DNA from: Naegleria gruberi
Taxonomy: Eukaryota
Reading direction: 5' to 3' (one strand)
Length of the DNA stretch: 64,000 nt
Assembly: GCA_000004985.1 (NCBI GenBank)
Contig: GG738915.1
The notes beneath the pieces are model-generated. The model was given only the letters and a program-made list of their open reading frames with translations. It was not told the DNA's origin and did no database searches. The position numbers and the translations under genes were made by a program. Position 1 is the stretch's first letter, and the number at the start of each line of letters is the position of its first letter. This document shows, in pieces, positions 1,619-51,023 of the stretch.

Positions 1619-4081
1619 ATGTATTCAACACGGTCTGCTACACCACAAACATCCTATCGCTTGCCTGGCTCGTCATCAACAACAACTTCATCAGGGACAA
1701 GCAATGCTGCTGCTCAAAAGCTTACAAGACCAGCTACTGCTTCTGGTGTTACAGCCACCAGAAGAACACCTACACCAACAGTTTCGCAAAACAAACTTCA
1801 ACCAACATCATCTACGCCCCGAATAATAATAGAGGAAAAGTATCATAAAAAGGTAGATAAAGACAGACAAGTGCTATATAGAAAGTATTATCAAGAAAGA
1901 TTTTTAGGTAAAGGTGGTTTTGCTCAGTGCTACTTGTTCAGACAAGTAGGTACAAATATTTTCCATGCTGCCAAGATTATTGACAAGAAAACTCTCGAGA
2001 AGGAAAATGTAAAGCAAAAACTCTTTTCTGAAATCAAAATCCACAGTTCTCTCTCCCATAGACATATTGTTAATTTTGTTAGATACTTTGAAGATATTAA
2101 TAATGTATACATTCTCTTAGAAGTCTGCAATTGTGGTTCAATGATGGATCTTTTAAAGAGCAGGACAAGATTAACAGAACAAGAAGCTAGGTTTTTCCTT
2201 CATCAAATTTTATTAGCTTGTCTGTATATGAACGAGAAGAAAGTTATCCATAGAGATTTGAAATTAGGTAATTTATTCCTTACAGATAAGATGGAGATCA
2301 AAATTGGAGACTTTGGACTTGCAACAGAAGTTGAATTCGATGGAGAACGAAAGAAGACAATCTGTGGTACTCCAAATTATATTGCACCTGAAATTCTTTA
2401 CAATAAGGGACACAGCTTTGAAGTTGATATTTGGTCTATTGGTGTAATATTGTACACCATGCTTGTTGGTACTCCTCCTTTTGAAACAAAGGATGTAAAG
2501 GAAACCTATAAGAAAATCAAACATAACGATTATAACTTCCCTCCAGATATTGAAATTAGTTCAAAAGCCAAGTCTCTTATTAGAAGTATTTTGAGACGTA
2601 ACCCAGACGATAGACCAGATATCAAGACAATCTTGAGTGATCCATTCTTTGCTGGACATTCAGTGGATGTTTGTCCAGTTACTCTTTTAGAATATGCCAG
2701 AACTCACGCTCTCAAGATTCCTGATGTTGAAGAAACAATGCCAGGATACAGTTTGAAACATCCTGAATTACAACAACAAATGCTCAAACTTAGACAAGAT
2801 CGTGGAGCACTTAGACAAATTGATAATAATACAATGCATCAAAGAGCTCAACCAACCGTGGAAACAGGACTTAAGAAACCACTCATGAGTGGTTTTCCAA
2901 CCTCAACAATGCGACCTCCACTTGCCACAGTGAATACCAATATTAATAATGAAAATTATAACCCTAATTCCCAACAAGTTGTAACCAAACAACCATTGTT
3001 TACTCCTTCTCATCCACCTCAACAACAAACTGAACAACCACAAAAACCTGTTCACCCAACTTTACAAACTCACTACACCTCAACAACTACAACCCAATCA
3101 GTTTCTACAACCAATTCCCCATCACACGTAACAGCTAGCTCTGTTACATCCTCCCCAAGTCTAGGCTCCCAACGTTCTGTACAAACAACTCAAACTACTT
3201 CACGTCTTCCAACCCCTAAGAGAAGATCTCCTAGTGAAGATGAAAGAAAATCTAAACCTCAAACACCAACTTCTGAATCATCTTTAGAAACTAGCAGATC
3301 AAAAGGACCACCAGTCAAGAAGGTTCGCAACACTGTTTCTTCTCCATATTCACCTTATGATGTATTAGATCCAATGACTGTTGACGAAGATGATACAACC
3401 AATGATAATGTTACTCATGATTTACCACCAATATGGATTACTCATTGGGCTGATTTTTCTGCAAAGTACGGTCTTACATATTTGATGAGCAATGGTTGTG
3501 TAGGTGCTGTTTATAATGATTCCTCAAAGATGACCTATATGCCTGCAACTGAACAAATTAATTACTACGAGAGAAAAGCTACTGGTGATAATATTTATGA
3601 AGAAAGGTCTACATTTACTGTATCTGATTTTCCTCCTCAAATGAATAAGAAGGTTACCCTTATCAAGTATTTTGCTGACGTTTTGAGCAAATTGAAGAGA
3701 AATGACCATAATTTGGTTTCTTCTCCTAATTCTGATACTGGCAGATGTAGTTATAGACCAAAGGATGATGTTTTCATTCAAAAGACTGGACTTGATGATG
3801 TATTTGTAAAGAGATGGTTGAGAACCTCACATGCAGTTATTTTCCGCCTCAGCAATAAGATAGTTCAAGTTTGTTTCCACGATCAAACTGAAATCATACT
3901 CACTGGAGATAGTAATCTTGTTTCATATACTGATCCTCAAGGTGTAAGAACTACCTATGCCTTGAATAAGGTTGTCAAGAGTCCAAGTCAAGAAATTGCC
4001 AAGAGACTCAAATACACTAAAGATGTCTTGTGCCAACTCATTAGTGGATCTGCTACCACTGATAAACACAGGAATCAATAA
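1619..4081 (+). CDS. PLK: Polo-like kinase (Ser/Thr kinase domain plus C-terminal polo boxes); single exon
   Basis: Kinase motifs HRDLKLGNLFL, DFGLA and GTPNYIAPE. Polo-box signature 'WITHWADFSAKYGLTYLMSNGCVGAVYND' and a second box 'HAVIFRLSNKIVQVCFHDQTEIIL'. The N-terminus is S/T-rich. Confidence 0.9.
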   Translation: MYSTRSATPQTSYRLPGSSSTTTSSGTSNAAAQKLTRPATASGVTATRRTPTPTVSQNKLQPTSSTPRIIIEEKYHKKVDKDRQVLYRKYYQERFLGKGGFAQCYLFRQVGTNIFHAAKIIDKKTLEKENVKQKLFSEIKIHSSLSHRHIVNFVRYFEDINNVYILLEVCNCGSMMDLLKSRTRLTEQEARFFLHQILLACLYMNEKKVIHRDLKLGNLFLTDKMEIKIGDFGLATEVEFDGERKKTICGTPNYIAPEILYNKGHSFEVDIWSIGVILYTMLVGTPPFETKDVKETYKKIKHNDYNFPPDIEISSKAKSLIRSILRRNPDDRPDIKTILSDPFFAGHSVDVCPVTLLEYARTHALKIPDVEETMPGYSLKHPELQQQMLKLRQDRGALRQIDNNTMHQRAQPTVETGLKKPLMSGFPTSTMRPPLATVNTNINNENYNPNSQQVVTKQPLFTPSHPPQQQTEQPQKPVHPTLQTHYTSTTTTQSVSTTNSPSHVTASSVTSSPSLGSQRSVQTTQTTSRLPTPKRRSPSEDERKSKPQTPTSESSLETSRSKGPPVKKVRNTVSSPYSPYDVLDPMTVDEDDTTNDNVTHDLPPIWITHWADFSAKYGLTYLMSNGCVGAVYNDSSKMTYMPATEQINYYERKATGDNIYEERSTFTVSDFPPQMNKKVTLIKYFADVLSKLKRNDHNLVSSPNSDTGRCSYRPKDDVFIQKTGLDDVFVKRWLRTSHAVIFRLSNKIVQVCFHDQTEIILTGDSNLVSYTDPQGVRTTYALNKVVKSPSQEIAKRLKYTKDVLCQLISGSATTDKHRNQ

Positions 4082-11087: not shown

Positions 11088-13700
11088 ATGTCATCAACAT
11101 TGCCCTCCAAAACAACAGCAACAACGACGAGCAATGCATCTTCTAAAAACAATAACAACAATAACAACCAAACAAACAAGAGAGTACTGAGTGTTTCAAC
11201 CACCTCAACGACACCAACCATAAACATTGAACAAAACAATAGATCGAAAAAGTTGCCCTCCTTACTAATCTCTCGATCTGAGAGAAGTACAGATGATGAG
11301 GATCAACCTCAGGATAATTTCTACTACTCATCAAATAACAAGAACAATACGAACAATCATCAGAATCATCAGAGAAATAATGATGTCGTTCACCCGTTCA
11401 ATAATAATCACCATTCAAAAAAGAGCAACAATAGGAACGAGAGAGTCTTCACCTCGGTTGTTCCATCGAGTCCTTCATCACCATTAGCCTTGCCGAATAC
11501 GACACAGGGAAAGAAAATGCATGCCTTTGAGAATGATTTCAATAAGAGACAACAACAACAACGAGATGGAAGTGTTTCTGTTAGTGATGATGACTCTTCA
11601 CAAAAATCGCTTATTCCAGTACAGTTACTTGGTTTGCGATCAAAGACAATGACTGCTCTGATTATTACCTTTCTATTGATTATTGCCTTGTGTGTTATTG
11701 GATTGTCCATTTCGTTTGATTCGTCTTTTAGGAGTGTGGAAGAGAGAGAGGCAACCGATTCAATTCTCAAACTATCAAAAGCTCTACAAGATGATTACAC
11801 AATTCTAGCCAATCGATTATATGAATATGCTGCTTGGGATGATGTTTATAATGTATTACAGGAAGAGAGTGCAACAAAAGCACAAGATCTTCTCAAGTCA
11901 TTCTTCGCCTGTGAATACATGGATAGGGTAAATTTGAATTTTGCCATGTATTACTTGCCAAATGGAAGCTTTCTTACTGGACTTGGATGTTATAATCAAG
12001 TTGAGTTATCGGTCTTCCCAACAGAACTCACCAATTTGGATCTATCCTTTTTTTCTCAAGTTTACACACCCACAACAAGGATGAGAACGTACATGATTCC
12101 AACAATGACTGTTGAGGATTTACTGGAACAGAGTGGACAAACCAGACCCTCCACATCATCAAGTACCAATATTTTGATGGTCACTGTACAACCAACTCAA
12201 ACAACTGATAATACAGTTTCTAATGGTTTGGCAATCTTTGCAAGTTATATTACAATGAAACTATTGGAGGAAGAATCAAAGAGAGTTAGATTGTGTGCAA
12301 CTTTTTACAATGTCAATAATACAGAGGATAGAAAATATTTGGAAAAGTACTTTTCTCCTGCAAGTGGACAAACTTTGGATCAATATATTTCCCTACAAGC
12401 ATCTTCAATGGTGAGTCCAAATGATACCTGGACATTTAATGGACCTTTCAAAATGTTGGCAGGCTCAGTGAAAGACACGTCCAAAAGAAAATGTGTTAGT
12501 GATGATGATGGAGGTAAGAGAATTTCCTCATTCAAAATTTTGTCAGATTCCAATGGAGTGGGAAGAGTTGTGATGAGAACAGATCTTCCAAGAGATATCT
12601 ATAATCTTGGTTGGTATTCATTCCTCTATACAATTATTGCATTCCTCGTGTTGATTATTATTTTGACATTTTCAATTTTACTATTTGTGGAATTTGTAGT
12701 CTTGAGGAGAGTAATCAAGATTGGATCATTTGTGAGAAATGTTACCACTGAGAGCGACACTTCAAAGAGAATTCAAAAGATGGGAAGAGACGAGCTTGGA
12801 AATTTGTCTCGTGACATTAACAAAATGTTGGAAGCATTGGAATTTTCACAGGAAAAGCTTGCTCGTGACAATAGCTTAATGGAGAAGATTCTTGAAAGAA
12901 CAGCCCTCGAAGAAGAAAAGAGTCGTTGTCTATTGAATTCAATTACGGATTTTATTGCCACTGTGGAGTGTTCTACTGGTTTGATTGTGAGCATCAACTC
13001 ATCATTTGAAAATAAGGTTTTAAAGAAGAAACAAGTAACCAGCGATGATAATAAGGAAGTATTCGATATTTTCGAATATCTCAAAGAATTTTCTGACAAC
13101 AAACAATTATTGGAAAAATTGGACAAATTGTCACATACAGAGGAGAATTTTGATACAATGGTAACAACAGGTTTAGGTAGCAAGTACCCAGTCTCTATCA
13201 ATGTAAATAAGACCAAGATGACACTCAGAGAGGGACAAGTTGGAGAAGCTTTCATTGTAGTGATGAAAAACCTCTCCGAACAAAAGGATTTCAGAAATCT
13301 AGTTCAACAAGAGAAACTTTCTCAAATCCAACAAATTACCAAATTTGAAAAGATGATGAATGATCAAGATATGAGAAAACGATTCAGAGCTTTTGCAGAA
13401 AAGGAACAAAGCGTTGAAAACTTCCTCTTCTTGGAAGATATTGAAGTTTACAAATCACTGCCAACCACAAAGGAAAGAGCCATTCTCCAAGAAGCAATTA
13501 CAAAGAAATATCTGCAAAATGATAGTGAATTCCCACTCAATGTTTCACAAAAAGTATTAGAAACAGAGTATAAGAAAATTTCAATAGGTTATGGACAACT
13601 TTCTCTCTTTGATAGACTAGAAACCATTGTAAAGGGTATGATTTTAGGTGATACATTCCAAAGATTTATTGATCATGAACAAAATGAGCTCAATAAATAA
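11088..13700 (+). CDS. Receptor-like signalling protein: N/Q-rich N-terminus, then TM1, a ~310-aa extracytoplasmic sensor-like domain and TM2, then HAMP, a PAS-like region and a C-terminal RGS domain
   Basis: TM segments 'ALIITFLLIIALCVIGLSI' and 'YTIIAFLVLIIILTFSILLFVEFVVL'. The HAMP-like region is 'VLRRVIKIGSFVRNV...MGRDELGNLSRDINKMLEAL'. The RGS domain is 'FRAFAEKEQSVENFLFLEDIEVYK...FDRLETIVKGMILGDTFQRFI'. Confidence 0.75.
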   Translation: MSSTLPSKTTATTTSNASSKNNNNNNNQTNKRVLSVSTTSTTPTINIEQNNRSKKLPSLLISRSERSTDDEDQPQDNFYYSSNNKNNTNNHQNHQRNNDVVHPFNNNHHSKKSNNRNERVFTSVVPSSPSSPLALPNTTQGKKMHAFENDFNKRQQQQRDGSVSVSDDDSSQKSLIPVQLLGLRSKTMTALIITFLLIIALCVIGLSISFDSSFRSVEEREATDSILKLSKALQDDYTILANRLYEYAAWDDVYNVLQEESATKAQDLLKSFFACEYMDRVNLNFAMYYLPNGSFLTGLGCYNQVELSVFPTELTNLDLSFFSQVYTPTTRMRTYMIPTMTVEDLLEQSGQTRPSTSSSTNILMVTVQPTQTTDNTVSNGLAIFASYITMKLLEEESKRVRLCATFYNVNNTEDRKYLEKYFSPASGQTLDQYISLQASSMVSPNDTWTFNGPFKMLAGSVKDTSKRKCVSDDDGGKRISSFKILSDSNGVGRVVMRTDLPRDIYNLGWYSFLYTIIAFLVLIIILTFSILLFVEFVVLRRVIKIGSFVRNVTTESDTSKRIQKMGRDELGNLSRDINKMLEALEFSQEKLARDNSLMEKILERTALEEEKSRCLLNSITDFIATVECSTGLIVSINSSFENKVLKKKQVTSDDNKEVFDIFEYLKEFSDNKQLLEKLDKLSHTEENFDTMVTTGLGSKYPVSINVNKTKMTLREGQVGEAFIVVMKNLSEQKDFRNLVQQEKLSQIQQITKFEKMMNDQDMRKRFRAFAEKEQSVENFLFLEDIEVYKSLPTTKERAILQEAITKKYLQNDSEFPLNVSQKVLETEYKKISIGYGQLSLFDRLETIVKGMILGDTFQRFIDHEQNELNK

Positions 13701-24679: not shown

Positions 24680-27600
24680 TCAACAGTCGTTTAATAAACG
24701 TTCTTGATGTCTCTTGTTAAATTCAACATGGTCCAATAAGTGAGTGACAATATTTTGAGATTGTTGGGCTTCATAGTACAATGCTTCTTGGGGTGAGCTC
24801 TCTCTTTGAATATCTTGCTGTTCATCATGATCATCTGAGTATTCTTCGTCCATGAAAGATCTAGGGTGTGAAAAACTAAGACCTCTATTACTAAGTGTAT
24901 TATGTGAAATAGAGGAAGATCGACTATTGTAAAAGTCCTCCCTGGATGTGAATTTGGCAAGGACATTATTTTGGAAACGTTCAGCGTATGAAATTGGCTC
25001 CACACTACTGATACCATTTGGATCTTTTCTTAAAATCTTCGTTTTGATTAAAGTTTCCATCTTCTTATTCATGTCATAGAGCTGCAAAATATCAATTACA
25101 GAAGAGTACATGATGGCTGCTCTATTGTAAGGAGAATCCAAGTCTATAACTTGAATTCCTCCCTTATAAGTTTTGTGGAATGGCTCATAAAACTTAATCT
25201 CATTTGGTAAACTTTCCACACTAATAACAGCTGGGTCATCTTCAGCTAAACCTAGAAGGAGCGAATAATCCATAATCTTGAGAGATTTGAGAAAGTTGGA
25301 ATCAATAGTCAATTGTTGTTTGAATCTTTCATAAATTGCCTTATTTTCAAAAATTATTTTACGCTTTCTAGTAAAATCATTATCAAGTAATAACTTGTTT
25401 CTGTTTTGAACATGACTGGCATATGCATCCTCAGCATTGGATGTAGATTTGAATTTAAGAGTATTGGCATAACCATCAAAGGTAGGAAGGTTGTTTCTGT
25501 TAATCCAACTTCCTTTCAAGTCAAACTTGGTATAGACACTCATTGGATCATATTGTGCTCCACGATCCTTTGCTAATCTACAATTCAAAGCATTGTTAAT
25601 GACAATAAATTTGATTTTAAAGTTGGCTGTCATTTTCAATTCATAAATACCAAATATTTTCACAATAAATGTATCTCTAAATGTTGTGTAATGCTTGTAA
25701 AAGAATTGAATATTGTCCAATAGTAATTTCAATTCATCATCATTAATAGTCTTGATCATAAATTGAGAATCGTAAGTGAATAGGAAGAAACTACCTGACT
25801 TTCCTTCACTGAAATTATTTCTCACAGATTCCAACACTACAGAAGTTGGTTCAAAAGATCTCTTGTAAGATTCCATAATAGAATGAATATCTGCTGAACC
25901 AGTAAGATTATCAACAAAGTAGTAGCTTCTCAAGTGATGGAAAGCTGTTGGATAATACTCAGTGACACTAATCTTGTGTTTTGTAACAAGGTTGTAAAGT
26001 CCAGGATGTGTTTTGGATCTCAGAGATGGATGGAAGAGTTTCTTCATTAGTGGAGAACCGTACAGAGTATTTCTATGAGAGGTCAATTCAGATTCTGAAT
26101 AATTGAATTGTTTGATAATGTCTTCACATTCATGAGCTTGTTTCATACAGTGTTGAGTAGCCAACAAGACACAAAAAATCAAATCTCTTCTGACCATATA
26201 GTCAATGGCAACGTTTGAAAGAGAATCCTCAAAGAATTTTTGATCTTGTTGTGATAGATATTTCAAGAAACGTTCTTGGTCTGCTTCAGAACCCTCATCC
26301 ATAATACCTTCGAAGAGTAATCTTTGATGGTAAAGTGATTCCTTAGCTTTTTCAATGGCCATTCTTCTTCTAGAGAGAAGATCGAGTTCCTCATCCACAG
26401 CAACACCTTCCGCTAAAATGGAAGTATAGAGTGTTGAGCTTTTGATAACACCCTTCTTCTTGATTCTATCGAGAATATTTTGTCCCTCATCGTTTTCTGT
26501 AAGCATACAAAGAAAGTCCTTAAATTTCTTAATATGTCTCAAAATGATAGGATCTGAAAGTAAGATTAGTGACAAAATGAGACCTTCAATACTCGATACA
26601 ATAATTGAAATATTACGAGCAATAATTGTGAAAATAGTAATTCCAGCATCACTAAAGTCCTCCCCTTTTTGTTTCAATTCAGAAATCTTACCCTTCAAAA
26701 TAACACTTGAAAGTAAAGTTCCCAATAAAGAAATGCCAATAACACCACTGAAAATACATTGTCTAATAATGATACCATTTCTTAATTTTTGAGTACCTGG
26801 TAAACCTCTTCTCAAACTTGACCAAACATATAAACAAATACCAATACCTATAATGGCCATAATACCATTGATACCATAGATGGCATAACCAATATATAAT
26901 TCATCAGGAAGAATTGAACATGCCTGATTGTTTTGTGTTAGTGTACTCTCAACTACAGATCCTACAATTGCAAGAATGGTGAGTGTCCACATGCAAATAT
27001 GATACATGATGTGTTTTTTCTTATTTCCCTTGATGGGATTCGTAGCAACATTGAGTAAATCCAATACAATGCAAAATCCATAACAATATGAGCAAAAATT
27101 AAATCCATATTCGAATATAGCAACAACTATACACATGTTTGGTTCATAGATCGTCTCTGGAAAGTGTAAAATTAGCAATATGAGAAAGTGTTTCACGCAA
27201 CTGAGAGCTTCAGTGGCCAGAAAAGCCATAATGAGAGCAAAATTCTTTCTACCTCTCAATTCAGCAAGTCCAACAAAGGCCACCATCAATATGATACAAA
27301 AGCAAAAGCTTAATGCTGCAAACACCAATTCAAAATAGGAGCACACTCTTGCCAAGAGTGCTATCCTCATCATTAATAAATCCATGGTAGGATCAGTTGA
27401 ATTTGTTCCATTATTATTTGAAGAATTATCAAGTAATACCAAGTGTTCCATTGTTGTAAATTCATTTTTCCAAAATTCGTCAATTCCAATTTTAAAAGTT
27501 GCTGCACCTTTTCGAGAGTGAATGAATGAATCGTAATTATCATCATCCTGATGTTCCTCCTCCTCATGATCATCGTAATGAAAAGGCAGTGAATTAGAAG

Positions 27601-27964
27601 GGGTGGTAAATCGATCTCTAAACAGACTTGTCTTTAATTTGTTACTATACATTTGGTGAATAGAATTTTGATTTGATAAACTTGTATGATCCGGTGTTAA
27701 ATTATTGTTACTCGAAAGGCTAAGAGATGGTCGGATGATAACTACATGATGAAGAAATAATAAACATGAAAGGAGGAGAAGGAAAAGGACAATATACAAG
27801 GAGGTAGTCATGATTGTTGAAAAGGAACAGAATGATTTTGTTGATGAAGATGATGTACTAGTTATTCCGTCATTGCTATTCGCCTGTTGCTTTCCAGCAG
27901 CAACACTAACACAACAAGAAGAATCGGACTTGCTCGTTGTGAGTCTTGTTGGAGATGATGGCAT
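24680..27964 (-). CDS. GPCR-PIPK: 7TM receptor-like N-terminal region fused to a C-terminal phosphatidylinositol-phosphate kinase catalytic domain
   Basis: Multiple hydrophobic helices between residues ~200 and 480. The PIPK core is 'GKSGSFFLFTYDSQFMIKTI', 'IVKIFGIYELKM' and 'MDYSLLLGLAE'. Confidence 0.8.
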   Translation of the reverse strand: MPSSPTRLTTSKSDSSCCVSVAAGKQQANSNDGITSTSSSSTKSFCSFSTIMTTSLYIVLFLLLLSCLLFLHHVVIIRPSLSLSSNNNLTPDHTSLSNQNSIHQMYSNKLKTSLFRDRFTTPSNSLPFHYDDHEEEEHQDDDNYDSFIHSRKGAATFKIGIDEFWKNEFTTMEHLVLLDNSSNNNGTNSTDPTMDLLMMRIALLARVCSYFELVFAALSFCFCIILMVAFVGLAELRGRKNFALIMAFLATEALSCVKHFLILLILHFPETIYEPNMCIVVAIFEYGFNFCSYCYGFCIVLDLLNVATNPIKGNKKKHIMYHICMWTLTILAIVGSVVESTLTQNNQACSILPDELYIGYAIYGINGIMAIIGIGICLYVWSSLRRGLPGTQKLRNGIIIRQCIFSGVIGISLLGTLLSSVILKGKISELKQKGEDFSDAGITIFTIIARNISIIVSSIEGLILSLILLSDPIILRHIKKFKDFLCMLTENDEGQNILDRIKKKGVIKSSTLYTSILAEGVAVDEELDLLSRRRMAIEKAKESLYHQRLLFEGIMDEGSEADQERFLKYLSQQDQKFFEDSLSNVAIDYMVRRDLIFCVLLATQHCMKQAHECEDIIKQFNYSESELTSHRNTLYGSPLMKKLFHPSLRSKTHPGLYNLVTKHKISVTEYYPTAFHHLRSYYFVDNLTGSADIHSIMESYKRSFEPTSVVLESVRNNFSEGKSGSFFLFTYDSQFMIKTINDDELKLLLDNIQFFYKHYTTFRDTFIVKIFGIYELKMTANFKIKFIVINNALNCRLAKDRGAQYDPMSVYTKFDLKGSWINRNNLPTFDGYANTLKFKSTSNAEDAYASHVQNRNKLLLDNDFTRKRKIIFENKAIYERFKQQLTIDSNFLKSLKIMDYSLLLGLAEDDPAVISVESLPNEIKFYEPFHKTYKGGIQVIDLDSPYNRAAIMYSSVIDILQLYDMNKKMETLIKTKILRKDPNGISSVEPISYAERFQNNVLAKFTSREDFYNSRSSSISHNTLSNRGLSFSHPRSFMDEEYSDDHDEQQDIQRESSPQEALYYEAQQSQNIVTHLLDHVEFNKRHQERLLNDC

Positions 27965-29228: not shown

Positions 29229-32200
29229 TTAGAGAACAAAGTTTAATGTGGAAACAACCAAAGCAATCATCAATACACCAACCATCTTCAAAGAATGAGA
29301 ATGTGAAATAATAGAAGCTCTTGGAACTTGTGGGCTTGAAAATCCACTCACTGAATTGGAGGCACCTGGCTGAACAGTAGTATCAGGTTCAACAGTTGGA
29401 TCTGCAGAAGGTCTTGTCTCTGTGGCAACATCAAAGAACAATGAGGAAACCTTAATTGGATCCTTGTCTGGACTTTCTGAAACACCACATGTAGAAACAG
29501 AGCCCCATTTCTTAATTTCACCTGATGTGATAAATCTGGAGGTTTCTTCTTGTCCCTGATCACCAATAAATCTTACATTATCCACAATCAAATCTCTGTA
29601 CGGACTTGTAGCAGTGATGGTACCAGAGAAATAGAAGGAAAATCTTTGGAATTGTTGAACTCCTGTAAAACTCAAGTCAGAGAGTGGAATTCTAACTCTT
29701 GTGAGACGAGTTTCATCAATCTTGTAGAATTGAGTATAGGTGCTGTTAGTTGTCAGAGTTTTGATTGTTGTAAATTGTTTGGTATTTGAATTGTAAGAAG
29801 CAAAGCTCATTGTCAATTCAAAAGAGCCACTGCTATTAGTTTCTCTCACAAAGAATTCGAAATACTTGTAAATGGAAGTATCAACAGCAAAAGAAGTGTA
29901 TCTGTACAATTGTAATCCACCTCTTCTGAAACTCATGTAGAATGATGAGCTTCCACATACTGGATTAATAGAGTAGGATGTATTCGAAACTACATAATCA
30001 CCACTACCTGAATTGGAATAGACTTGTGCAGTAAATCCAGTTGACTTGGAAGGATCTCCATCATTGTACAGATACAAGGCCTCTGACTCATTCTTTACAA
30101 CACAAGGTGAAGTAGTAATAACAAATGGTGGTAAATTACAAGTTCCACTACAATACAATTGGGCTCTCAAATGTCCCTTTGGATTTTCAGAACTTGAAAC
30201 CTTTACAAAAATTCTTCCTTTCAACAAGTCAACCCATTCACCATGAGATAATTGTAAACCAAATCTACTTTGAGAATATGGAGATGGAACATAGGAATAT
30301 GAAATAATTCTTTCAACAGAACCAACGGATCCAACACCCACTTCAACAAGAGTTGCCTTGTCATTCATATTATGATGCAGAATCAAATCTAACATCTTGT
30401 CATTGTAATTGAGAAAACCAAAAACTGTACCAACTGCACTACTCGATCCAGATGCTAGTGGAGTAATGGAATTTTGTTGACACATTTCCAATCGACCAAC
30501 AAATCTATCTTCCTTCAAGAAAACTCTGTAGGTTTCTCTTGGATTTTCTGGAAGACTTGGATTGGCAGTTCCACAATAATTATTTGGACAAGTGGCAGTG
30601 ATAACAATATCTTTAGAGTTACTCCATGAACCATAATCAACAAATCCATACCATTCCTTCTTATTATTTTTGGAATAGGTATTTTCAAATTTGATATACA
30701 AGTGACCAGTAGTAGAATTGAATATTATATTATGATAATATTCAGTTGGATAATTGACAACGTCTTGGAATGAATTGGACAATTTCAAAGTCTTTGGATC
30801 TGATGTAGAGGTTATAGAGAATTTAGAACCTTTTGGATATTGAATGACCATGACAACCCAATCGCCAGAAGCTGAAGATTGCATTTGTAAACTCATTGGG
30901 TTTGGAGGAGGAAGATCAAAAGCATATTTCATGGCATAGAAACCACGTGATGGAACATTGGATTGCATATAGAAAGTTCCACCAGAAGACATTCCACCAG
31001 CAGTACTTGTTTGGATGTTTCTAGTGAGGTCTGTAAGGTACATTCTTGGAATTCTTGTATTGTAGGAAATATATTCTGGATGGGAAATACCATATGGATC
31101 GATGATTACAGAACTAGTAATATTGTAATTCAAAGCTCTAAATTGAACGTAGGATTCACCAATAAATGGACAAACAGAGGCGTTGTTCCACTCTGATCTA
31201 ATTTCACAACCTTCAAAGTTTTGAATTGCATCATTACCACTAATCCATGCACCAGCAGCAACACCAGTGATCGATCCATCTATATCCATGAAAACAGCAC
31301 CCTTTCACAATATCTATTTCTGGTATGGAGCTTGAAATAATTGTCAAGATAGGACAATGCACCAGCTCTTCTATATTGATCAGTGACAAAGTTTCTAAAA
31401 GTCACATTTCTCAACAATTCAGCACCGCCGTTATCATAAGTTTCATAACCCTTAATGACCACAGTTGTTGAGGCATATAAATTTGGTCTTGTTCTATTTC
31501 CCTTATCAACATTTGGTCTCAAAGTATAGTCTCCAATATTATCCGATTCTCCAATCATGATTGAATCGGTAATGTATGAAGTACCAGGTGGAGAATTCAT
31601 CTGTCTCATATTATCAGTCAAGTACAAGTTTTTGAAAACGATATTTCCACAACGAGCCCAAATTCCATAATTTCTCAACTTGTAAGCTGTGAAATTATCA
31701 ATGAGAGCCTCAATAGATGGATAGTAACCAGCTTGTTCAGTTGTGCCATCAGCTTTTTCCATATCATCCATGAATAGTCCATTATGTCCACTGTGAGCTA
31801 CATTTCCTGAAAATGGTTTAGGTGGAGCAGTTCTTGGATTGATAGAACCTGGGGCGTACAATGAGGCACTGGCACCTGTTGGGAAAGTTGGCCTAAATAA
31901 GAATTAAAAACACTTAGGTGATCATGAATATTTTGTAAAAAACTTACATTCTAATAACAATTTGAAAATTAATCAAGTAATAAAGATGATAACTTACGTA
32001 AACCAATAGCAATGCTTTCCACCAACAGCATGATTATCAATGAATGAATTGTTTGGATTGGTAATCCAGAAAACAGCAACTTCACTATCAGATGGAATCA
32101 AACGATACGTCAAATCATAAACAGGTTTTGGACGAATTCCCAAATTATGCTTGAACACATTACCTAGTTCAGAACCATCCTCCAAAAAGTATTCATGACC

Positions 32201-33277
32201 AATAGCATTGAAACAGACATTATCTTCAAGAAGGAAATAATTAGTATCATGAACCACATAACATCTCTGGAATGAATCATGAACAGAACATCCCCTAATA
32301 TAGTATTGAGTGCCAAATGTTGAGTTTTGTGCAGTATTTTCCAGGAGGTGAAGATGGAATGAATATCTTCCCATCAAGCCATATTGACCAAACTTTCTAA
32401 TTTCAATTCCTTCAACTTGAAATTGAGTAACCAAACGAACCATGAAATGACCACCGAATTGTGAAACATCAGATGAGTTGTCACCTTGGAAGATAATTCT
32501 TCTGGAGAGTAAACCAACTTCAGGTCTAATTTCAGCACCATTGCTGTAGTGAGTATAATTGAGTGGAGAATCTAATACAATGGTTTTACCACCGTCTAAA
32601 ACTTGAGTAATGACACGTTCTTCGTTTTGATCAGGGAAGTAATTACCAATTTTCCAATTGACCAATGATGAGCTAACTAATCTATAATCATAAACTTCAC
32701 CATAATCTGATGAGGCAATAACAATAGAGTCGCCAACTCTCCATGATACGCTTTCCCTCAACTTGATTTGATTAGAACCTTTCTTTGCAGTTACAGCAAG
32801 ATCAGTAAAAGTTGGTGAGTCAACTTGACCAAAGATTTGAACCTTGGATCCAGATAAGAAACCAATACCCTTTGAACCCATGTTAACGTTATCAAAAGGA
32901 TCGATACCAATTTCACTTTCTGTAGTGCGAGAACCATAGAATGTCAAAATAATCTTGTTAGTAATTGGACATGTGGCACTTCCCATGATCCAGCTAGCAC
33001 CACTTTCAACTCGAATGTAATCTACATGCAAAGTTAAATTGGCATTATCGAAAATGAGAGAACCACCAGATAGTACAGTAATACTGCGAAGTTTGTAAGG
33101 AGGAGATTTATCAACCTTGACAGCTTTGTTAATAGTAATTTGACTGTTGGCAACTGAAAAACCAGACAAAGAACTGAACAAAGTAAGACCGCTTTCAGCA
33201 TGTGGACAATTGGTTTGACAACATGCTAAACATGCAAGTGCAAGAATAGTAACAACTAGTGTCAGTAATCTTGACAT
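29229..33277 (-). CDS. CEMIP/TMEM2-like secreted or type-I membrane protein (signal peptide, G8 domain, parallel beta-helix PbH1 repeats, GG-type domain, Ser/Thr-rich stalk, C-terminal TM anchor). Exons about complement(join(29229..31289,31290..31892,31998..33277)) with an unresolved frame change near 31290.
   Basis: Signal peptide 'MSRLLTLVVTILALACLACC'. Matches to human CEMIP/TMEM2: 'GDSIVIASSDYGEVYDY', 'EIRPEVGLLSRRIIFQG', 'NAIGHEYFLEDGSELGNVFKHN', 'VFWITNPNNSFIDN', 'FTAYKLRNYGIWARCGNI', 'FMDIDGSIT...CEIRSEWNNASVC'. The 105-nt intron 31893..31997 (GTAAGT/AG) joins 'KHCYWFT|PTFPTG'. The C-terminal 'MVGVLMIALVVSTLNFVL' is a TM or GPI-like tail. Confidence 0.75.
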
Positions 33278-43851: not shown

Positions 43852-45693
43852 ATGGAATCCTACTGGCTCGGACCTAATAATGAAGTCTCTCAAGTGCCTA
43901 CAAATAATGATTCATCCTCTCCTGTGAATGATGATGAGGATTTTAATAGTAATACAAGAAGTGAAGAAGTAACCTCTTCGGTGGCTACAAGTACAATCCT
44001 GATGGATAGACAACAAAACCAACAACATCATCATCATCATCAATCGAATAATCATCATAATCATGATTCACCTCAGAGTAATAATAATAACAATGATCAA
44101 AGAGAGGATATGATTTCGGAATCACCTACAAAATTTAATAGCTACTTGGATAATGTATTAAAATCGAGTTTCATGACCAATTTAATTGTGTCGTATTGGG
44201 ACAATAATATGGGTCCTCGACCTTTGAAAATTTGGAATGGAACAGTACCAAGAAGTGAAATTCTAACAGATGATACCCTCTTGTTTATTTCTAGATTTTC
44301 AATGATGGATGATATGCCAAGATATGAAGAAATTGGACCAAATATTGAAATTAAATTTAATATCATGTCGGATTTGAATGTAATGGTACTAACAGCTGTA
44401 TTTTGCAGTAAAAATTGGGAAAAGGGAACATCAAGGTCGTTCTTTAGGAGAAAGGTTGATCCTCCACCAACTTTATTTACAATCAGTATTGTAATGAATA
44501 GAGAAAATCTCTCCAAATTTATGGTCATTAATTTTATCATGAAGGAAAAACTCATTACACTTGCCAAGATTATGAAACACTTTGCTGATCAATATACCAA
44601 TTCGAATCAGAATGAAGTTATTTCAAATTTCGAGAACCATTTACATGAATTTGTACAATTATACGATTCTCTGAGTAGAATTGTTTATAGCCCGCCATCA
44701 ATGAATTTGTATACTACTTTATTCAGTGAAGAAATTTCACTGAAAAGACTCTATGAAAGTGAAGAGGAATCAATATTTCTCCAACGAGCAATATCATCAC
44801 ATTTAGAAACACATGGTTATAGTGTAGTGGTTGGCTTACCTAATCAATTGAGGGAAATCAATGTTTGGGTGAATACATTGGCCATGTTCCTTTCACAACA
44901 CGAGAAACAATTAATCAAACATGCCAAAAAGATTGAAGCTACAAAACTACCAACAGAAATTCAAACAGTTGTAAAAACTAGTTTCTTCAAGAGAGCCTCA
45001 GCACCAGTTAAAATGTTGGATCCTGAAAATCTATTCAAACCTGAAATATTTGTACAAGGTCTTGTAGTTACACCTGATGTTTCGCATTGGAAAGACTTGA
45101 TACCTACAAAATCACTACTATCTGGTAGATATCCAATATCAGTTATAGATTTAAAAGATAGAAAAGTATATTCCTTTAAAAAGTATCAGTATTTCCAAGC
45201 TTTTAAGCAGGAATTCTTTGAAGAATCCGAGTCAAAGAATATTCTCAATGATTTTGGAATTCAAAACACTGGTAACGACAAACAATTTAGAGATCACTAT
45301 GAAGAGGCTAGAAGAATTTGCACAAGTGTTCAAGAGCTGTTCTATGTCATTCTCAAAGTTATGCCCCTAACAATATATCCCTCTATGAGATATTCCCTCA
45401 TTTCTGAGTTTGTTCGGCTTCTTAATAGAAAGGCGTTGGCACTTGCAAAATACGTTCATTCAATGAGGAATGTGGAAATGATAGCGCCTGCCAAAATTCA
45501 AAAGGTTCTAGTGAAACATGTTATGATTAATAATAGTGTTCAGAAATACAGACCTGATGATTTGACTTCTGAATTAATGGCCATTACTGCTACAGCAGAG
45601 AAATTACAACACGGAGTTTATACAATAGTAACAGGAGATCCAAGACAAGAGGCAGAAGATGTTGTTAACTTTTTGGGGTCGACAAATTTCTAA
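43852..45693 (+). CDS. C9orf72: C9orf72 orthologue (DENN-like longin-domain GEF-complex subunit)
   Basis: 'LIVSYWDNNMGPRPLKIWNG' (human 'ATFAYWDNILGPRVRHIWAP'). 'LQRAISSHLETHGYSVVVGLPNQ' (human 'LLNAISSHLQTCGCSVVVGSSAE'). 'FVQGLVVTPD' (human 'FVQGLLKDST'). The N-terminus is low-complexity and His-rich. Confidence 0.7.
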   Translation: MESYWLGPNNEVSQVPTNNDSSSPVNDDEDFNSNTRSEEVTSSVATSTILMDRQQNQQHHHHHQSNNHHNHDSPQSNNNNNDQREDMISESPTKFNSYLDNVLKSSFMTNLIVSYWDNNMGPRPLKIWNGTVPRSEILTDDTLLFISRFSMMDDMPRYEEIGPNIEIKFNIMSDLNVMVLTAVFCSKNWEKGTSRSFFRRKVDPPPTLFTISIVMNRENLSKFMVINFIMKEKLITLAKIMKHFADQYTNSNQNEVISNFENHLHEFVQLYDSLSRIVYSPPSMNLYTTLFSEEISLKRLYESEEESIFLQRAISSHLETHGYSVVVGLPNQLREINVWVNTLAMFLSQHEKQLIKHAKKIEATKLPTEIQTVVKTSFFKRASAPVKMLDPENLFKPEIFVQGLVVTPDVSHWKDLIPTKSLLSGRYPISVIDLKDRKVYSFKKYQYFQAFKQEFFEESESKNILNDFGIQNTGNDKQFRDHYEEARRICTSVQELFYVILKVMPLTIYPSMRYSLISEFVRLLNRKALALAKYVHSMRNVEMIAPAKIQKVLVKHVMINNSVQKYRPDDLTSELMAITATAEKLQHGVYTIVTGDPRQEAEDVVNFLGSTNF

Positions 45694-49013: not shown

Positions 49014-51023
49014 ATGTTGAAAAGGACAAGGAACCTCGTTGCTGCCTCAAAGCAAGGACAACAATTACTATTGGCCACTCATAATTTATATGGATTTAAA
49101 AAGCCAACAACAACAACAACATGTTCATCGTCATCAGCACTTGTTGGTAATTTTAGTACAAATCGCTCTGCATTGTTTATTCATCCCGATGAATTAATTC
49201 CAACTAAAAAGCCAGTCAATAGATTTTCGAGAAAGTTTGTTCCATTCACTAGAAAATCAGCCAGTGAATATGAAGAAGACCAAACAATTGAAAGTCAGAA
49301 AGTATTAATTGAAGGAGGGTATATTAAACAAATTTCTTCGGGTGTCTATACATTCCTTCCACTGGGTACAAAAGTATTGGAAAGATTAACATTCATCATT
49401 GATAAATCATTACAGAAAATTGGATGCGAAAAGATTGTCATGCCATCATTAATTCAATCAGAGTTGTGGGAAGAAACAGGAAGATGGCAAACTGCTGGAA
49501 AGGAATTATTTAGATTATCGGATAGAAAGGACCATCAATTCTGTCTTGCTCCAACTCATGAGGAATGTGTTACAGATGTTGTTCGTTCTCTTGCATCAAG
49601 TTACAAACAAACTCCACTTAGACTCTATCAAATTGGTGTCAAGTTCAGAGATGAATTGAGACCAAGATATGGTTTGATGAGAGCAAAGGAATTTATTATG
49701 AAGGATTTATACTCTTTTGATATTGATAGAGAAAGAGCTTATCAATCCTATGACGAAGTTGTTGGAGCTTATAAGCAAATTTTCGATTTACTTGGACTTG
49801 ACTATGCCATGGTTGAGGCTGATACAGGAAATATTGGTGGTGACAAATCACATGAATTCCAAGTCTTGTCTGAGGTTGGTGAGGATTTTGTTTGTAGATG
49901 TAGTTGTGGAAAGAAATATTCTGCCAATATTGAAAAGGGTGAAGGTGTAGCTCCAGAAGTTTTTTCAAATGTTAATAATCGCGAATATTTCAAGGAAACT
50001 AAACCACTCTCGACCAATATTGATACATTGACATCATTGCTCGATGAATTAGCTCCAAATTATGATATTCACTTTGCTACATCAGAACCTGTAAAACACT
50101 TGCAAAGATCTAGAGTTGGCTACACTAGAACCATTATTGTTACTCAAAAGGGAGACACTGTAAATGAAATTAAGGTTAAGGATGCTGTTAAGAGTTTGGA
50201 AAAGACAGAAATTTCACTTGGACAAATTGTTCGTTATGCATCTGTTAAGGATACAATCAAACACAAGACAAGTGCTAGAGTCTTGATATTAATGGATTCT
50301 TCTGTTGAATCTTCAATTGTTGATAAATTGACAACAGGAGGTGATATTGAAGGTCAAAAGACATTCTTGAGATCTGTAAACCAAAATGATATTTGTATTA
50401 ATAATTCTTCAGAATGTAAGAACACTCCAATGATCATTAAGAAGGGTATTGAAATTGGTCACGTTTTCTACTTGGGTAAGAAATATAGTGAACCAATGAA
50501 GGTTTTCTTCTCTAGTGAACAAGGCAAGAGAGATGTTGCTGAGATGGGTTGTTATGGTATTGGTGTTTCTAGATTGCTCCAATCAGTCGCTGAAACACAC
50601 AAGACTGAGAAGGGTATCTGTTGGCCAATGTGTATTGCTCCAATTAGAGCTTACATGACTCCAATGGTACCAACTGCCAAGATGTTGCCAGATTTGACAC
50701 CTGAAGAATTTGAAAAGAAGAGACAACAAATTATTGAGGCTTCTGAGGAATTCTATCACAAATTGAATGCTGTCAGTGCTTTCAGAGGTGAAGTCCTTTT
50801 TGATGATAGATTGAAGGAAAGACCACCAGTCAAGCTCTATGATGGTGTCAAGTTTGGTTCTCCATACATTATTGTCATTGGCAAGGATTATTTGGAAAAT
50901 AGAACATTTGAAATTCAAGATAGAGCCAACAATGTAACGTTACACATGACTGAATCAGAAGCATTGGAATTCTTTGAAAAGGTCTCACAAGATTTTGAAA
51001 AGCAAATGTCTGTTCTCTATTAA
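49014..51023 (+). CDS. PARS2: Prolyl-tRNA synthetase, bacterial-type with INS editing domain and N-terminal organellar presequence (mitochondrial ProRS)
   Basis: Class II motif 2 'FRDELRPRYGLMRAKEFIMKD', an insertion domain between motifs 2 and 3, and the C-terminal anticodon-binding domain. The presequence is 'MLKRTRNLVAASKQ'. Confidence 0.85.
   Translation: MLKRTRNLVAASKQGQQLLLATHNLYGFKKPTTTTTCSSSSALVGNFSTNRSALFIHPDELIPTKKPVNRFSRKFVPFTRKSASEYEEDQTIESQKVLIEGGYIKQISSGVYTFLPLGTKVLERLTFIIDKSLQKIGCEKIVMPSLIQSELWEETGRWQTAGKELFRLSDRKDHQFCLAPTHEECVTDVVRSLASSYKQTPLRLYQIGVKFRDELRPRYGLMRAKEFIMKDLYSFDIDRERAYQSYDEVVGAYKQIFDLLGLDYAMVEADTGNIGGDKSHEFQVLSEVGEDFVCRCSCGKKYSANIEKGEGVAPEVFSNVNNREYFKETKPLSTNIDTLTSLLDELAPNYDIHFATSEPVKHLQRSRVGYTRTIIVTQKGDTVNEIKVKDAVKSLEKTEISLGQIVRYASVKDTIKHKTSARVLILMDSSVESSIVDKLTTGGDIEGQKTFLRSVNQNDICINNSSECKNTPMIIKKGIEIGHVFYLGKKYSEPMKVFFSSEQGKRDVAEMGCYGIGVSRLLQSVAETHKTEKGICWPMCIAPIRAYMTPMVPTAKMLPDLTPEEFEKKRQQIIEASEEFYHKLNAVSAFRGEVLFDDRLKERPPVKLYDGVKFGSPYIIVIGKDYLENRTFEIQDRANNVTLHMTESEALEFFEKVSQDFEKQMSVLY

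Follow-up and report, generated by a model that had tools for sequence, protein, structure and literature searches.

Among known relatives of the protein analyzed here, the metazoan CEMIP (KIAA1199/HYBID) and TMEM2 (CEMIP2; PDB 8c6i) share with it a parallel β-helix initiated by a G8 domain, a common set of invariant motifs, a small sandwich insert and, probably, a domain X. CEMIP and TMEM2 also carry two lectin-like domains, GG-1 and GG-2, and GG-1 holds all of the residues reported to be necessary for hyaluronan degradation by these proteins (R265, D273, D286 and His248/Ala303; PMC10206443; PMC12423501). Hyaluronan binding and depolymerization are disputed even for human TMEM2 (PMC10206443; PMC12423501), and in one study the purified TMEM2 ectodomain was inactive in vitro (PMC10206443). 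Bacterial G8/CEMIP_beta-hel proteins (T9SS-sorted Saprospiraceae proteins, Microscilla 'fibrocystin L', Thermaceae proteins and others) have the same core at 29–34% identity, but cover 30–60% of our query and continue into other C-terminal modules, including T9SS sorting, Ig-like and ricin domains. Naegleria G8/CEMIP-β-helix proteins are already present in public databases and Pfam models exist for both the helix and domain X; we found no literature that links Naegleria or protists to G8/CEMIP proteins.

The gene lies on the minus strand, as do all of the features described below, and fills exactly positions 33277..29229 of the 64,000-nt stretch of DNA that we analyzed (the window). The neighboring prolyl-tRNA synthetase (ProRS) ORF is 69% identical to that of Naegleria lovaniensis, in agreement with the protist origin proposed in the first-pass annotation. 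A tblastn search of the 64-kb window matched the gene itself and no paralogues elsewhere in it. By direct reading of the sequence, with a spliced translation that is colinear with the homologues, exon 1 (31998..33277) encodes aa 1–426 plus 2 nt and is followed by a 105-nt GT..AG intron (31893..31997; GTAAGT...TTTAG) whose removal restores the frame, giving WFT-PTFPTG here versus WFTMPTFPTG in the homologues. Exon 2 continues through the remainder of the CEMIP-type β-helix (31307..31892; aa 427–622) and contains residues P446, R447, N457, H460, D520 and N521, all of which are invariant in the family alignment columns. The first-pass annotation had correctly placed a gene here, but overlooked a frameshift at the end of this segment; the frame is not continuous, and the remaining 686 codons (ORF3) form a separate downstream frame that is conserved and has no stop.

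The encoded protein has 15 N-glycosylation sequons, 21 Cys residues and only two hydrophobic segments, one at each end. The N-terminal segment is signal-peptide-like (33218..33277, including the start codon), reading MSRLLTLVVTILALACLACC followed by QTNCPH. It stands immediately before the G8 domain, as was first proposed, and aligns with the N-termini of the Naegleria homologues, all of which lead into a conserved Q-CPH motif. The G8 domain (32795..33148; aa 44–161) forms the opening rungs of the β-helix, matches Pfam PF10162 with an E-value of 3.4e-21 (75.9 bits against a cutoff of 22.9) and aligns to the G8 region of TMEM2. The CEMIP_beta-hel model (PF24606) covers aa 273–463, or window positions 32461..31784 across the intron, with an E-value of 2.7e-55 (187.9 bits). 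The similarity of the helix is therefore to a family-specific model and is not confined to generic PbH1 repeats.

Homology to the CEMIP/TMEM2 core of G8, β-helix and a domain X-like sandwich is supported by structure as well. The human TMEM2 ectodomain (8c6i) is the sole sequence match in the PDB (E = 4e-41) and the best fold match for both halves of the protein. An AF2 model of the N-terminal half has a pLDDT of 93.7 and is matched to 8c6i by Foldseek with an E-value of 1.4e-29 and a TMq of 0.78; after TMEM2, the fold matches are proteins that act on glycans, namely phage capsule depolymerases, polysaccharide lyases, GH87, GH110 and AlgG. In an alignment of 55 sequences from protists, bacteria and animals, the protein retains every invariant column and keeps the superfamily motifs FGGH, GRYxxHxH, QRCxxVH, GHxYFLEDGxE and NVAHS. 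The retained polar residues, each invariant or near-invariant, are H243, E253, H277, R304, H308, H310, R338, H343, H361, E366, D367, E370, N378, N415, N457 and H460.

The GG-type domain named in the first-pass annotation is absent. There is no match to ILEI/GG (PF15711) at E ≤ 1 in the window protein and none among 23 family members searched with Pfam. Between the end of G8 and the start of the helix there are only 112 aa, as opposed to 239–286 aa in the GG-bearing relatives P0066 and P0069, and the short insert found there (32462..32794; aa 162–272) corresponds to the TMEM2 small sandwich without the GG-1 lectin domain. Consistent with this, hhalign pairs window residues 142–267 with residues 288–393 of P0066 and skips its ILEI/GG region (175–265), the GG core matches the family profile with a probability of 0.2%, and in the TMEM2 alignment query residues 151 to 173 span chain positions 153 to 339. 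Because both GG-1 and GG-2 are missing, the protein departs from the architecture of CEMIP and TMEM2, and because GG-1 is missing, the comparison of catalytic residues with TMEM2 that had been suggested is impossible.

Where CEMIP and TMEM2 have GG-2, this protein has two other C-terminal modules, one CHRD-like and the other a jelly-roll of the CBM8/11/30 type. The downstream frame begins with a domain X-like β-sandwich (30537..31088; ORF3 residues ∼68–251); the CEMIP_X model (PF24605) falls below the Pfam cutoff in this copy and matches 18 of the 23 family members. The CHRD-like domain (30156..30461; ORF3 residues 277–378) likewise scores under the cutoff for PF07452 in this copy (E = 0.004, 18.4 bits against 24.1), and CHRD is found at the homologous position in 16 of the 23 members (best E-value 5e-9; 27.1 bits for P0004). 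The jelly-roll (29562..30092; ORF3 residues ∼400–576) resembles solved CBMs in fold at 13–15% identity, a likeness that does not by itself prove sugar binding. As had been predicted, the protein then ends in a Ser/Thr/Pro-rich stalk (29289..29492; ORF3 residues ∼600–667) and a terminal hydrophobic segment that runs up to the stop codon (29229..29288; MVGVLMIALVVSTLNFVL). The 70 residues preceding the tail include 15 Ser, 6 Thr and 8 Pro, and residues 620–670 have pLDDT values below 50 and are predicted to be disordered. The tail comprises the last 18–19 residues, with no cytoplasmic segment after it. Homologues P0001, P0006 and P0007 share this layout and have small residues before the tail (SGA, GSGA); the corresponding stretch of the window protein (ISHSHSLK) does not form a textbook omega site. 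The layout looks most simply like a GPI-attachment signal, although a tail anchor would also fit. In either case the topology would differ from that of TMEM2, where the anchor is N-terminal and of type II (PMC10206443).

Heteroloboseans of the Naegleria clade have a multigene family of proteins that are secreted or anchored at the surface, and the locus is one of its paralogues. The closest named matches are 'G8 domain-containing' proteins, six from N. lovaniensis, three from N. gruberi and one from Willaertia, with several paralogues per genome. Members such as C9374_003197, NAEGRDRAFT_46431 and W. magna ABK040_007917 are colinear with the window protein over 93–99% of its length at 41–49% identity, and the Naegleria and Willaertia proteins share the order of signal peptide, G8, CEMIP β-helix, domain X, CHRD and C-terminal sandwich. 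The window copy differs from them in lacking 61 nt and in being frameshifted. Its closest relative is a metagenome protein (P0001; ENA ERZ929261, contig k127_434130) with 66% amino-acid identity, 82–84% nucleotide identity around the break and the same stalk and hydrophobic tail. P0001 keeps the 61 nt intact; its contig begins at exon 2 and does not cover the N-terminus. Bacterial and animal matches to the window protein score in the same range, which indicates that the family is ancient and that the window protein is not an orthologue of CEMIP/TMEM2.

The frame break (31280..31306) is a 61-nt deletion whose point lies between 31305 and 31304, in TGTGA/AAGGGT. The shift occurs at codon 623, from where the upstream frame continues as ERVLFSWI to a stop eight codons later (TAG, 31282..31280). 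All nine aligned homologues have ∼24 extra residues at this position, including a conserved LKFxNxN rung, and when the DNA is aligned to metagenome contig L001 the window has a clean gap of 61 nt between ungapped flanks that are 84% and 82% identical. Relative to L001, dN/dS is 0.11 upstream of the break and 0.27 downstream. These low values on both sides, together with the stop-free run of 686 downstream codons, indicate that the lesion is either young or artefactual, so that the window copy is a recent pseudogene or the product of an assembly deletion. If the sequence is correct, it would be a very recent pseudogene encoding a 630-residue product without domain X, the CHRD and CBM-like domains or the anchor.

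We considered whether the break could be bypassed. Among GT..AG pairs 20–400 nt apart with a length ≡ 2 mod 3, there is no canonical donor for a compensating intron, and every candidate that bridges the break would cut conserved coding sequence; the shortest, at 29 nt, loses the invariant DIDG motif. The additional segment in L001 begins with TT and ends with AC, unlike a GT..AG intron. Programmed −1 frameshifting has no X XXY YYZ slippery heptamer to act on in GAA AGG GTG CTG TTT TCA TGG ATA TAG (by inspection in the upstream frame), and it also could not bring back the ∼20 missing residues.

We judge it reasonably probable that the whole is best explained as a heterolobosean surface paralogue of the CEMIP core, inferred to act on glycans, that is broken here by the 61-nt deletion. 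This copy is then an ordinary family member that is probably inactive. The strongest competing explanation, which we regard as a serious but lesser possibility, is that the organism has an intact gene encoding a full-length protein of ∼1334 aa with a functional surface anchor, and that the gap arose through an error of assembly or consensus. A frame of 686 codons that has remained open in a 35% GC genome, purifying selection downstream relative to the nearest relative and the retention of all invariant downstream residues are what would be expected of an intact gene. On the other hand, a clean 61-nt loss between well-aligned flanks is unlike the homopolymer slips typical of sequencing errors, and in ProRS, the one further long coding region that was compared with a homologue, a single ORF accounts for 91% of the length. 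Our searches for an independent sequence of the same species, by a metagenome protein-pattern scan, by the exact 26-nt junction and by looking up the exact products of four ORFs in the window, gave no match.

The intact form would consist, from N- to C-terminus, of a signal peptide, a G8-initiated right-handed β-helix, domain X, a CHRD-like domain, a CBM8/11/30-like jelly-roll, a stalk of the O-glycosylation type and a C-terminal hydrophobic signal, and it would be displayed on the outside of the plasma membrane. There the CBM-like module, and perhaps also the CHRD module, could hold a polysaccharide that is cleaved or modified in a β-helix groove lined by the residues of the FGGH-to-NVAHS motifs, which are invariant from bacteria to animals. 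The substrate would not be hyaluronan; a prey or biofilm exopolysaccharide, or a cyst-wall or glycocalyx glycan of the amoeba itself, is likelier. This reading of the family as enzymes draws on fold and conservation, and no non-metazoan member has a demonstrated activity. The ancestral role is likely to have been that of a surface enzyme that cleaves or binds a polysaccharide other than hyaluronan. Only tentatively do we go further and propose that the heterolobosean CEMIP-core proteins are GPI-anchored glycanases in which the His/Glu/Asp groove of the helix is catalytic and a CBM8/11-like module, not a GG lectin, targets the substrate.

Alternatively, the family could be non-catalytic, with the β-helix acting as an adhesin or lectin for glycans of prey, substrate or cyst wall, which it would bind but not cleave. 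The surface location, the stalk, the CBM-like module and the inactivity of the TMEM2 ectodomain in vitro (PMC10206443) are compatible with such a role, which we nevertheless consider somewhat unlikely because from bacteria to animals invariant His, Glu, Asp and Asn residues form a column on successive helix rungs, a pattern that fits a catalytic or metal site better than a binding surface, and because the nearest folds outside the family are enzymes.

It is very improbable that the frameshift creates a soluble isoform, in which the truncated 630-aa product (signal peptide, G8 and β-helix) would be a functional secreted enzyme. The break does fall near the C-terminal end of the helix, but the deletion removes the conserved LKFxNxN rung, and truncation removes a DxDGS motif that is near-invariant in the family (at least 90% of 55 members, bacterial ones included). 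Least credible is a functional counterpart of CEMIP/TMEM2, that is, a protist cell-surface depolymerase of hyaluronan or another glycosaminoglycan, because, despite the common G8 and CEMIP β-helix, a probable domain X and the position of TMEM2 as best structural match, the protein lacks GG-1 with all of the residues reported to be necessary (PMC10206443; PMC12423501), has CHRD and CBM-like modules where GG-2 would be, is only ∼20% identical to TMEM2 and belongs to a family whose bacterial members score like the animal ones.

For the favored CEMIP-core paralogue, the immediate consequence is a corrected annotation, with CHRD and CBM-like modules in place of GG domains and a frameshift in this copy. 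The family-invariant helix residues persist in proteins without GG-1, which suggests the helix as the seat of the scaffold's conserved function, and this bears on where, and whether, CEMIP and TMEM2 are catalytic. If the heterolobosean proteins are indeed GPI-anchored glycanases, they would provide a simple system, free of GG domains, in which to locate the active site of the CEMIP/TMEM2 helix, and the animal hyaluronan-degrading proteins would represent an older microbial glycanase scaffold to which GG lectin domains were added.

As it stands, the locus itself matters little, the family being already catalogued. Only some Naegleria and Willaertia paralogues have the stalk and hydrophobic tail seen in the window, and the four closest Naegleria paralogues end in ...PDPDPLGIRKL with neither stalk nor anchor. 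This variability of the anchor, together with a freshly broken copy, suggests that a family of surface proteins in these amoebae undergoes birth-and-death turnover. The genomic neighbors of the best N. lovaniensis match are unrelated to those in the window, indicating that this match is a paralogue and not a syntenic orthologue.

The locus at 33277..29229 on the minus strand is a new, apparently broken member of a catalogued but uncharacterised family, and no second copy lies within the window. It consists of three collinear minus-strand ORFs, at 33277..31994, 31861..31280 and 31289..29229. At the first ORF junction, splicing out a canonical 105-nt intron (31997..31893, minus strand, GTAAGT...TTTAG) restores the frame, giving ...YWFT-PTFPTGASA..., in agreement with the aligned homologues. 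In the closest Naegleria lovaniensis paralogue (L002 10001..14337, PYSW02000017.1), the 5′ half is interrupted by several short introns (tblastn blocks break off at aa 78, 160 and ~500), as opposed to a single intron in the window gene; paralogues therefore do not share their intron positions.

For analysis we used a conceptual protein in which the exons are spliced and the two later frames are joined at the break between 31305 and 31304. In Pfam, G8 is matched at aa 44–161 (E 3.4e-21), and aa 273–463 fit CEMIP_beta-hel, a model specific to this family (E 2.7e-55). Among PDB entries, only one is related by sequence, 8c6i, the ectodomain of human TMEM2 (E 4e-41); residues 1–623, modelled confidently by AlphaFold2 (pLDDT 93.7), superpose on TMEM2 with a TM of 0.78. 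The CEMIP/TMEM2 likeness that the first-pass annotation had claimed for the G8 domain and beta-helix is therefore borne out. The next-best fold matches are all glycan-processing beta-helices: phage capsule depolymerases, a Klebsiella capsule lyase, GH87 and GH110 hydrolases and the alginate epimerase AlgG. In a 55-sequence alignment of protists, bacteria and animals, the invariant and near-invariant polar residues are all kept in the window protein, within the motifs FGGH277, GRY-x-x-H308-x-H310, QRC-x-x-V-H343, GH361-x-YFLE366D367G-x-E370, N378, N415 and N457-V-x-H460. Because these residues recur about every 30 positions, on successive rungs, they would line one face of the helix.

The protein is nevertheless not of CEMIP/TMEM2 architecture. 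CEMIP and TMEM2 each carry two GG domains: lectin-like GG-1, which interrupts the helix after its first turns, and GG-2 at the C-terminus. Every substitution reported to eliminate hyaluronan degradation (R265C, D273N and D286N, and His248/Ala303 in mouse/human chimeras) falls in GG-1 (PMC10206443; PMC12423501). The window protein has neither GG-1 nor GG-2, contrary to the GG-type domain proposed previously. PF15711 (ILEI/GG) has no match in it at E<=1 and none in the family (0/23 members), whereas the same search detects PF15711 in the more distant GG-bearing protein P0066 (E 1.8e-21) and is thus sensitive enough to reveal such a domain. The spacing from G8 to the helix is 112 aa, versus 239–286 aa in GG-bearing relatives, and the sequence alignment to TMEM2 skips from chain position 153 to 339. 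When the family profile is aligned to P0066 residues 161–400 with hhalign, only the small sandwich after GG-1 is matched, and the GG core alone against the whole 1313-column profile yields a probability of 0.2%. The POMGNT1-/FAM3-type (GG) fold is absent from both fold match lists.

In the AlphaFold2 model of the downstream ORF (pLDDT 79.8), three beta-sandwich units lead into a disordered stretch, and the chain ends in a helix. A CHRD-like domain sits between a domain X-like unit, the TMEM2-type sandwich after the helix, and a CBM-like unit; the window copy scores below the CHRD threshold (18.4 bits), whereas 16 of 23 relatives match (best E 5e-9). A hydropathy scan finds just two hydrophobic segments, at residues ~3–20 and in the last 18–19 residues. 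The first precedes a conserved Q-CPH motif, where the signal peptides of homologues also end, so the earlier suggestion of a signal peptide leading straight into G8 is right. The second extends to the stop codon with no residues beyond, and a terminal hydrophobic stretch without cytoplasmic residues is the classic layout of a GPI signal. The preceding stretch is predicted to be disordered and is rich in Ser, Thr and Pro (15 S, 6 T and 8 P over 70 residues); 15 sequons and 21 Cys are present in the protein. The Ser/Thr-rich stalk and hydrophobic tail claimed earlier thus stand as a layout, and a GPI signal is our preferred prediction for the tail, although the residues before it (ISHSHSLK) are less typical than the small-residue sites (SGA or GSGA) of P0001, P0006 and P0007, homologues with the same tail layout. 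Stalk and terminal segment are common to these three and the window copy. The four closest Naegleria paralogues (P0002–P0005) end at ...NPDPDPLGIRKL and have no stalk or hydrophobic tail, indicating that anchoring is variable within the family. Another homologue, P0013, carries a long, unrelated Cys-rich C-terminal extension. Overall, the first-pass observation is partly confirmed and its interpretation partly supported.

The upstream frame stops at TAG 31282..31280 and the downstream frame carries a TGA at 31307..31305, which confines the frame change to ~22 nt. An intron at this second junction was rejected because all GT..AG pairs bridging the break lack a plausible donor. Inspection of the frame overlap revealed no slippery heptamer. 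All nine aligned homologues have ~24 extra residues at exactly this point; the closest relative, P0001, reads NRYCD-LKFENSPQRVFLDTVTYENH-KGAALMDIDGS and the window copy NRYCE|KGAVFMDIDGS. DNA alignment to L001, the metagenome contig encoding P0001 (ENA ERZ929261 k127_434130), leaves the window with one clean gap of 61 nt at 31305/31304, flanked by ungapped sequence of 84% and 82% identity. A loss of 61 nt (3x20+1) puts the reading out of frame at codon 623, and the product ends after ERVLFSWI, at 630 aa. If the sequence is right, the window copy would be non-functional, because the loss takes out a conserved helix rung (LKFxNxN) and everything downstream. The downstream 686 codons are still open and conserved, and dN/dS against L001 is 0.11 upstream and 0.27 downstream of the break, so the lesion is either very recent in evolutionary terms or an artefact of assembly. 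No independent sequence of the same species was found in the collections searched.

The best named matches come from N. lovaniensis (six paralogues), N. gruberi (three) and Willaertia magna, at 38–49% identity over 89–99% of the length, and their annotation goes no further than hypothetical or 'G8 domain-containing protein'. More distant relatives occur in Planoprotostelium, Heterostelium, Closterium, chytrids and many bacteria, including T9SS-sorted Bacteroidota and Thermaceae. Animal CEMIP-like proteins score in the same range as bacterial members. The family is an old, widespread scaffold rather than a protist orthologue of the animal genes. We found no literature tying these protist proteins to any function.

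The protein is extracellular and heavily glycosylatable, and it comprises a beta-helix of the CEMIP type, a domain X-like sandwich, units resembling CHRD and CBM, a stalk and a terminal hydrophobic signal. It may be tethered to the outer leaflet, where the CBM-like module would dock on a polysaccharide that the helix, through its conserved His/acid groove, would cleave or modify. With the GG-1 determinants missing, hyaluronan is unlikely to be the substrate; prey or biofilm exopolysaccharides, or cyst-wall or glycocalyx glycans, are plausible ones. A purely adhesive role without cleavage is possible, especially as the purified TMEM2 ectodomain was itself reported to be inactive (PMC10206443). 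The locus is now of value chiefly in drawing attention to GG-free members, which might make it easier to localise the function of the conserved helix.

GC content is ~34%, and the best N. lovaniensis match is flanked by unrelated neighbour genes. Immediately downstream of the window gene, a single 1094-aa ORF (24680..27964, minus strand) has about seven hydrophobic segments in its first half followed by a PIP5K kinase domain (Pfam E 1.6e-53), a predicted GPCR-PIPK-type fusion like Dictyostelium RpkA and the oomycete GPCR-PIPKs. An 870-aa ORF (11088..13700, plus strand) pairs a CHASE4 sensor domain (E 1e-8) with an RGS domain at its C-terminus (E 1e-13); CHASE4 is typically bacterial, and this architecture is unusual for a eukaryote. 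A bacterial/mitochondrial-type prolyl-tRNA synthetase (49014..51023, plus strand) is 69% identical to its N. lovaniensis match and 45% to that of Willaertia, followed by Mortierellaceae fungi and Myxococcota at 34–38%; N. gruberi is not among the best 120 matches. The window comes from a heterolobosean of the Naegleria clade. A C9orf72-like (DENN-type) protein (43852..45693, plus strand, E 5e-17) and a Polo-like kinase with duplicated polo boxes (1619..4081, plus strand) are ordinary eukaryotic genes and confirm the nuclear protist context.
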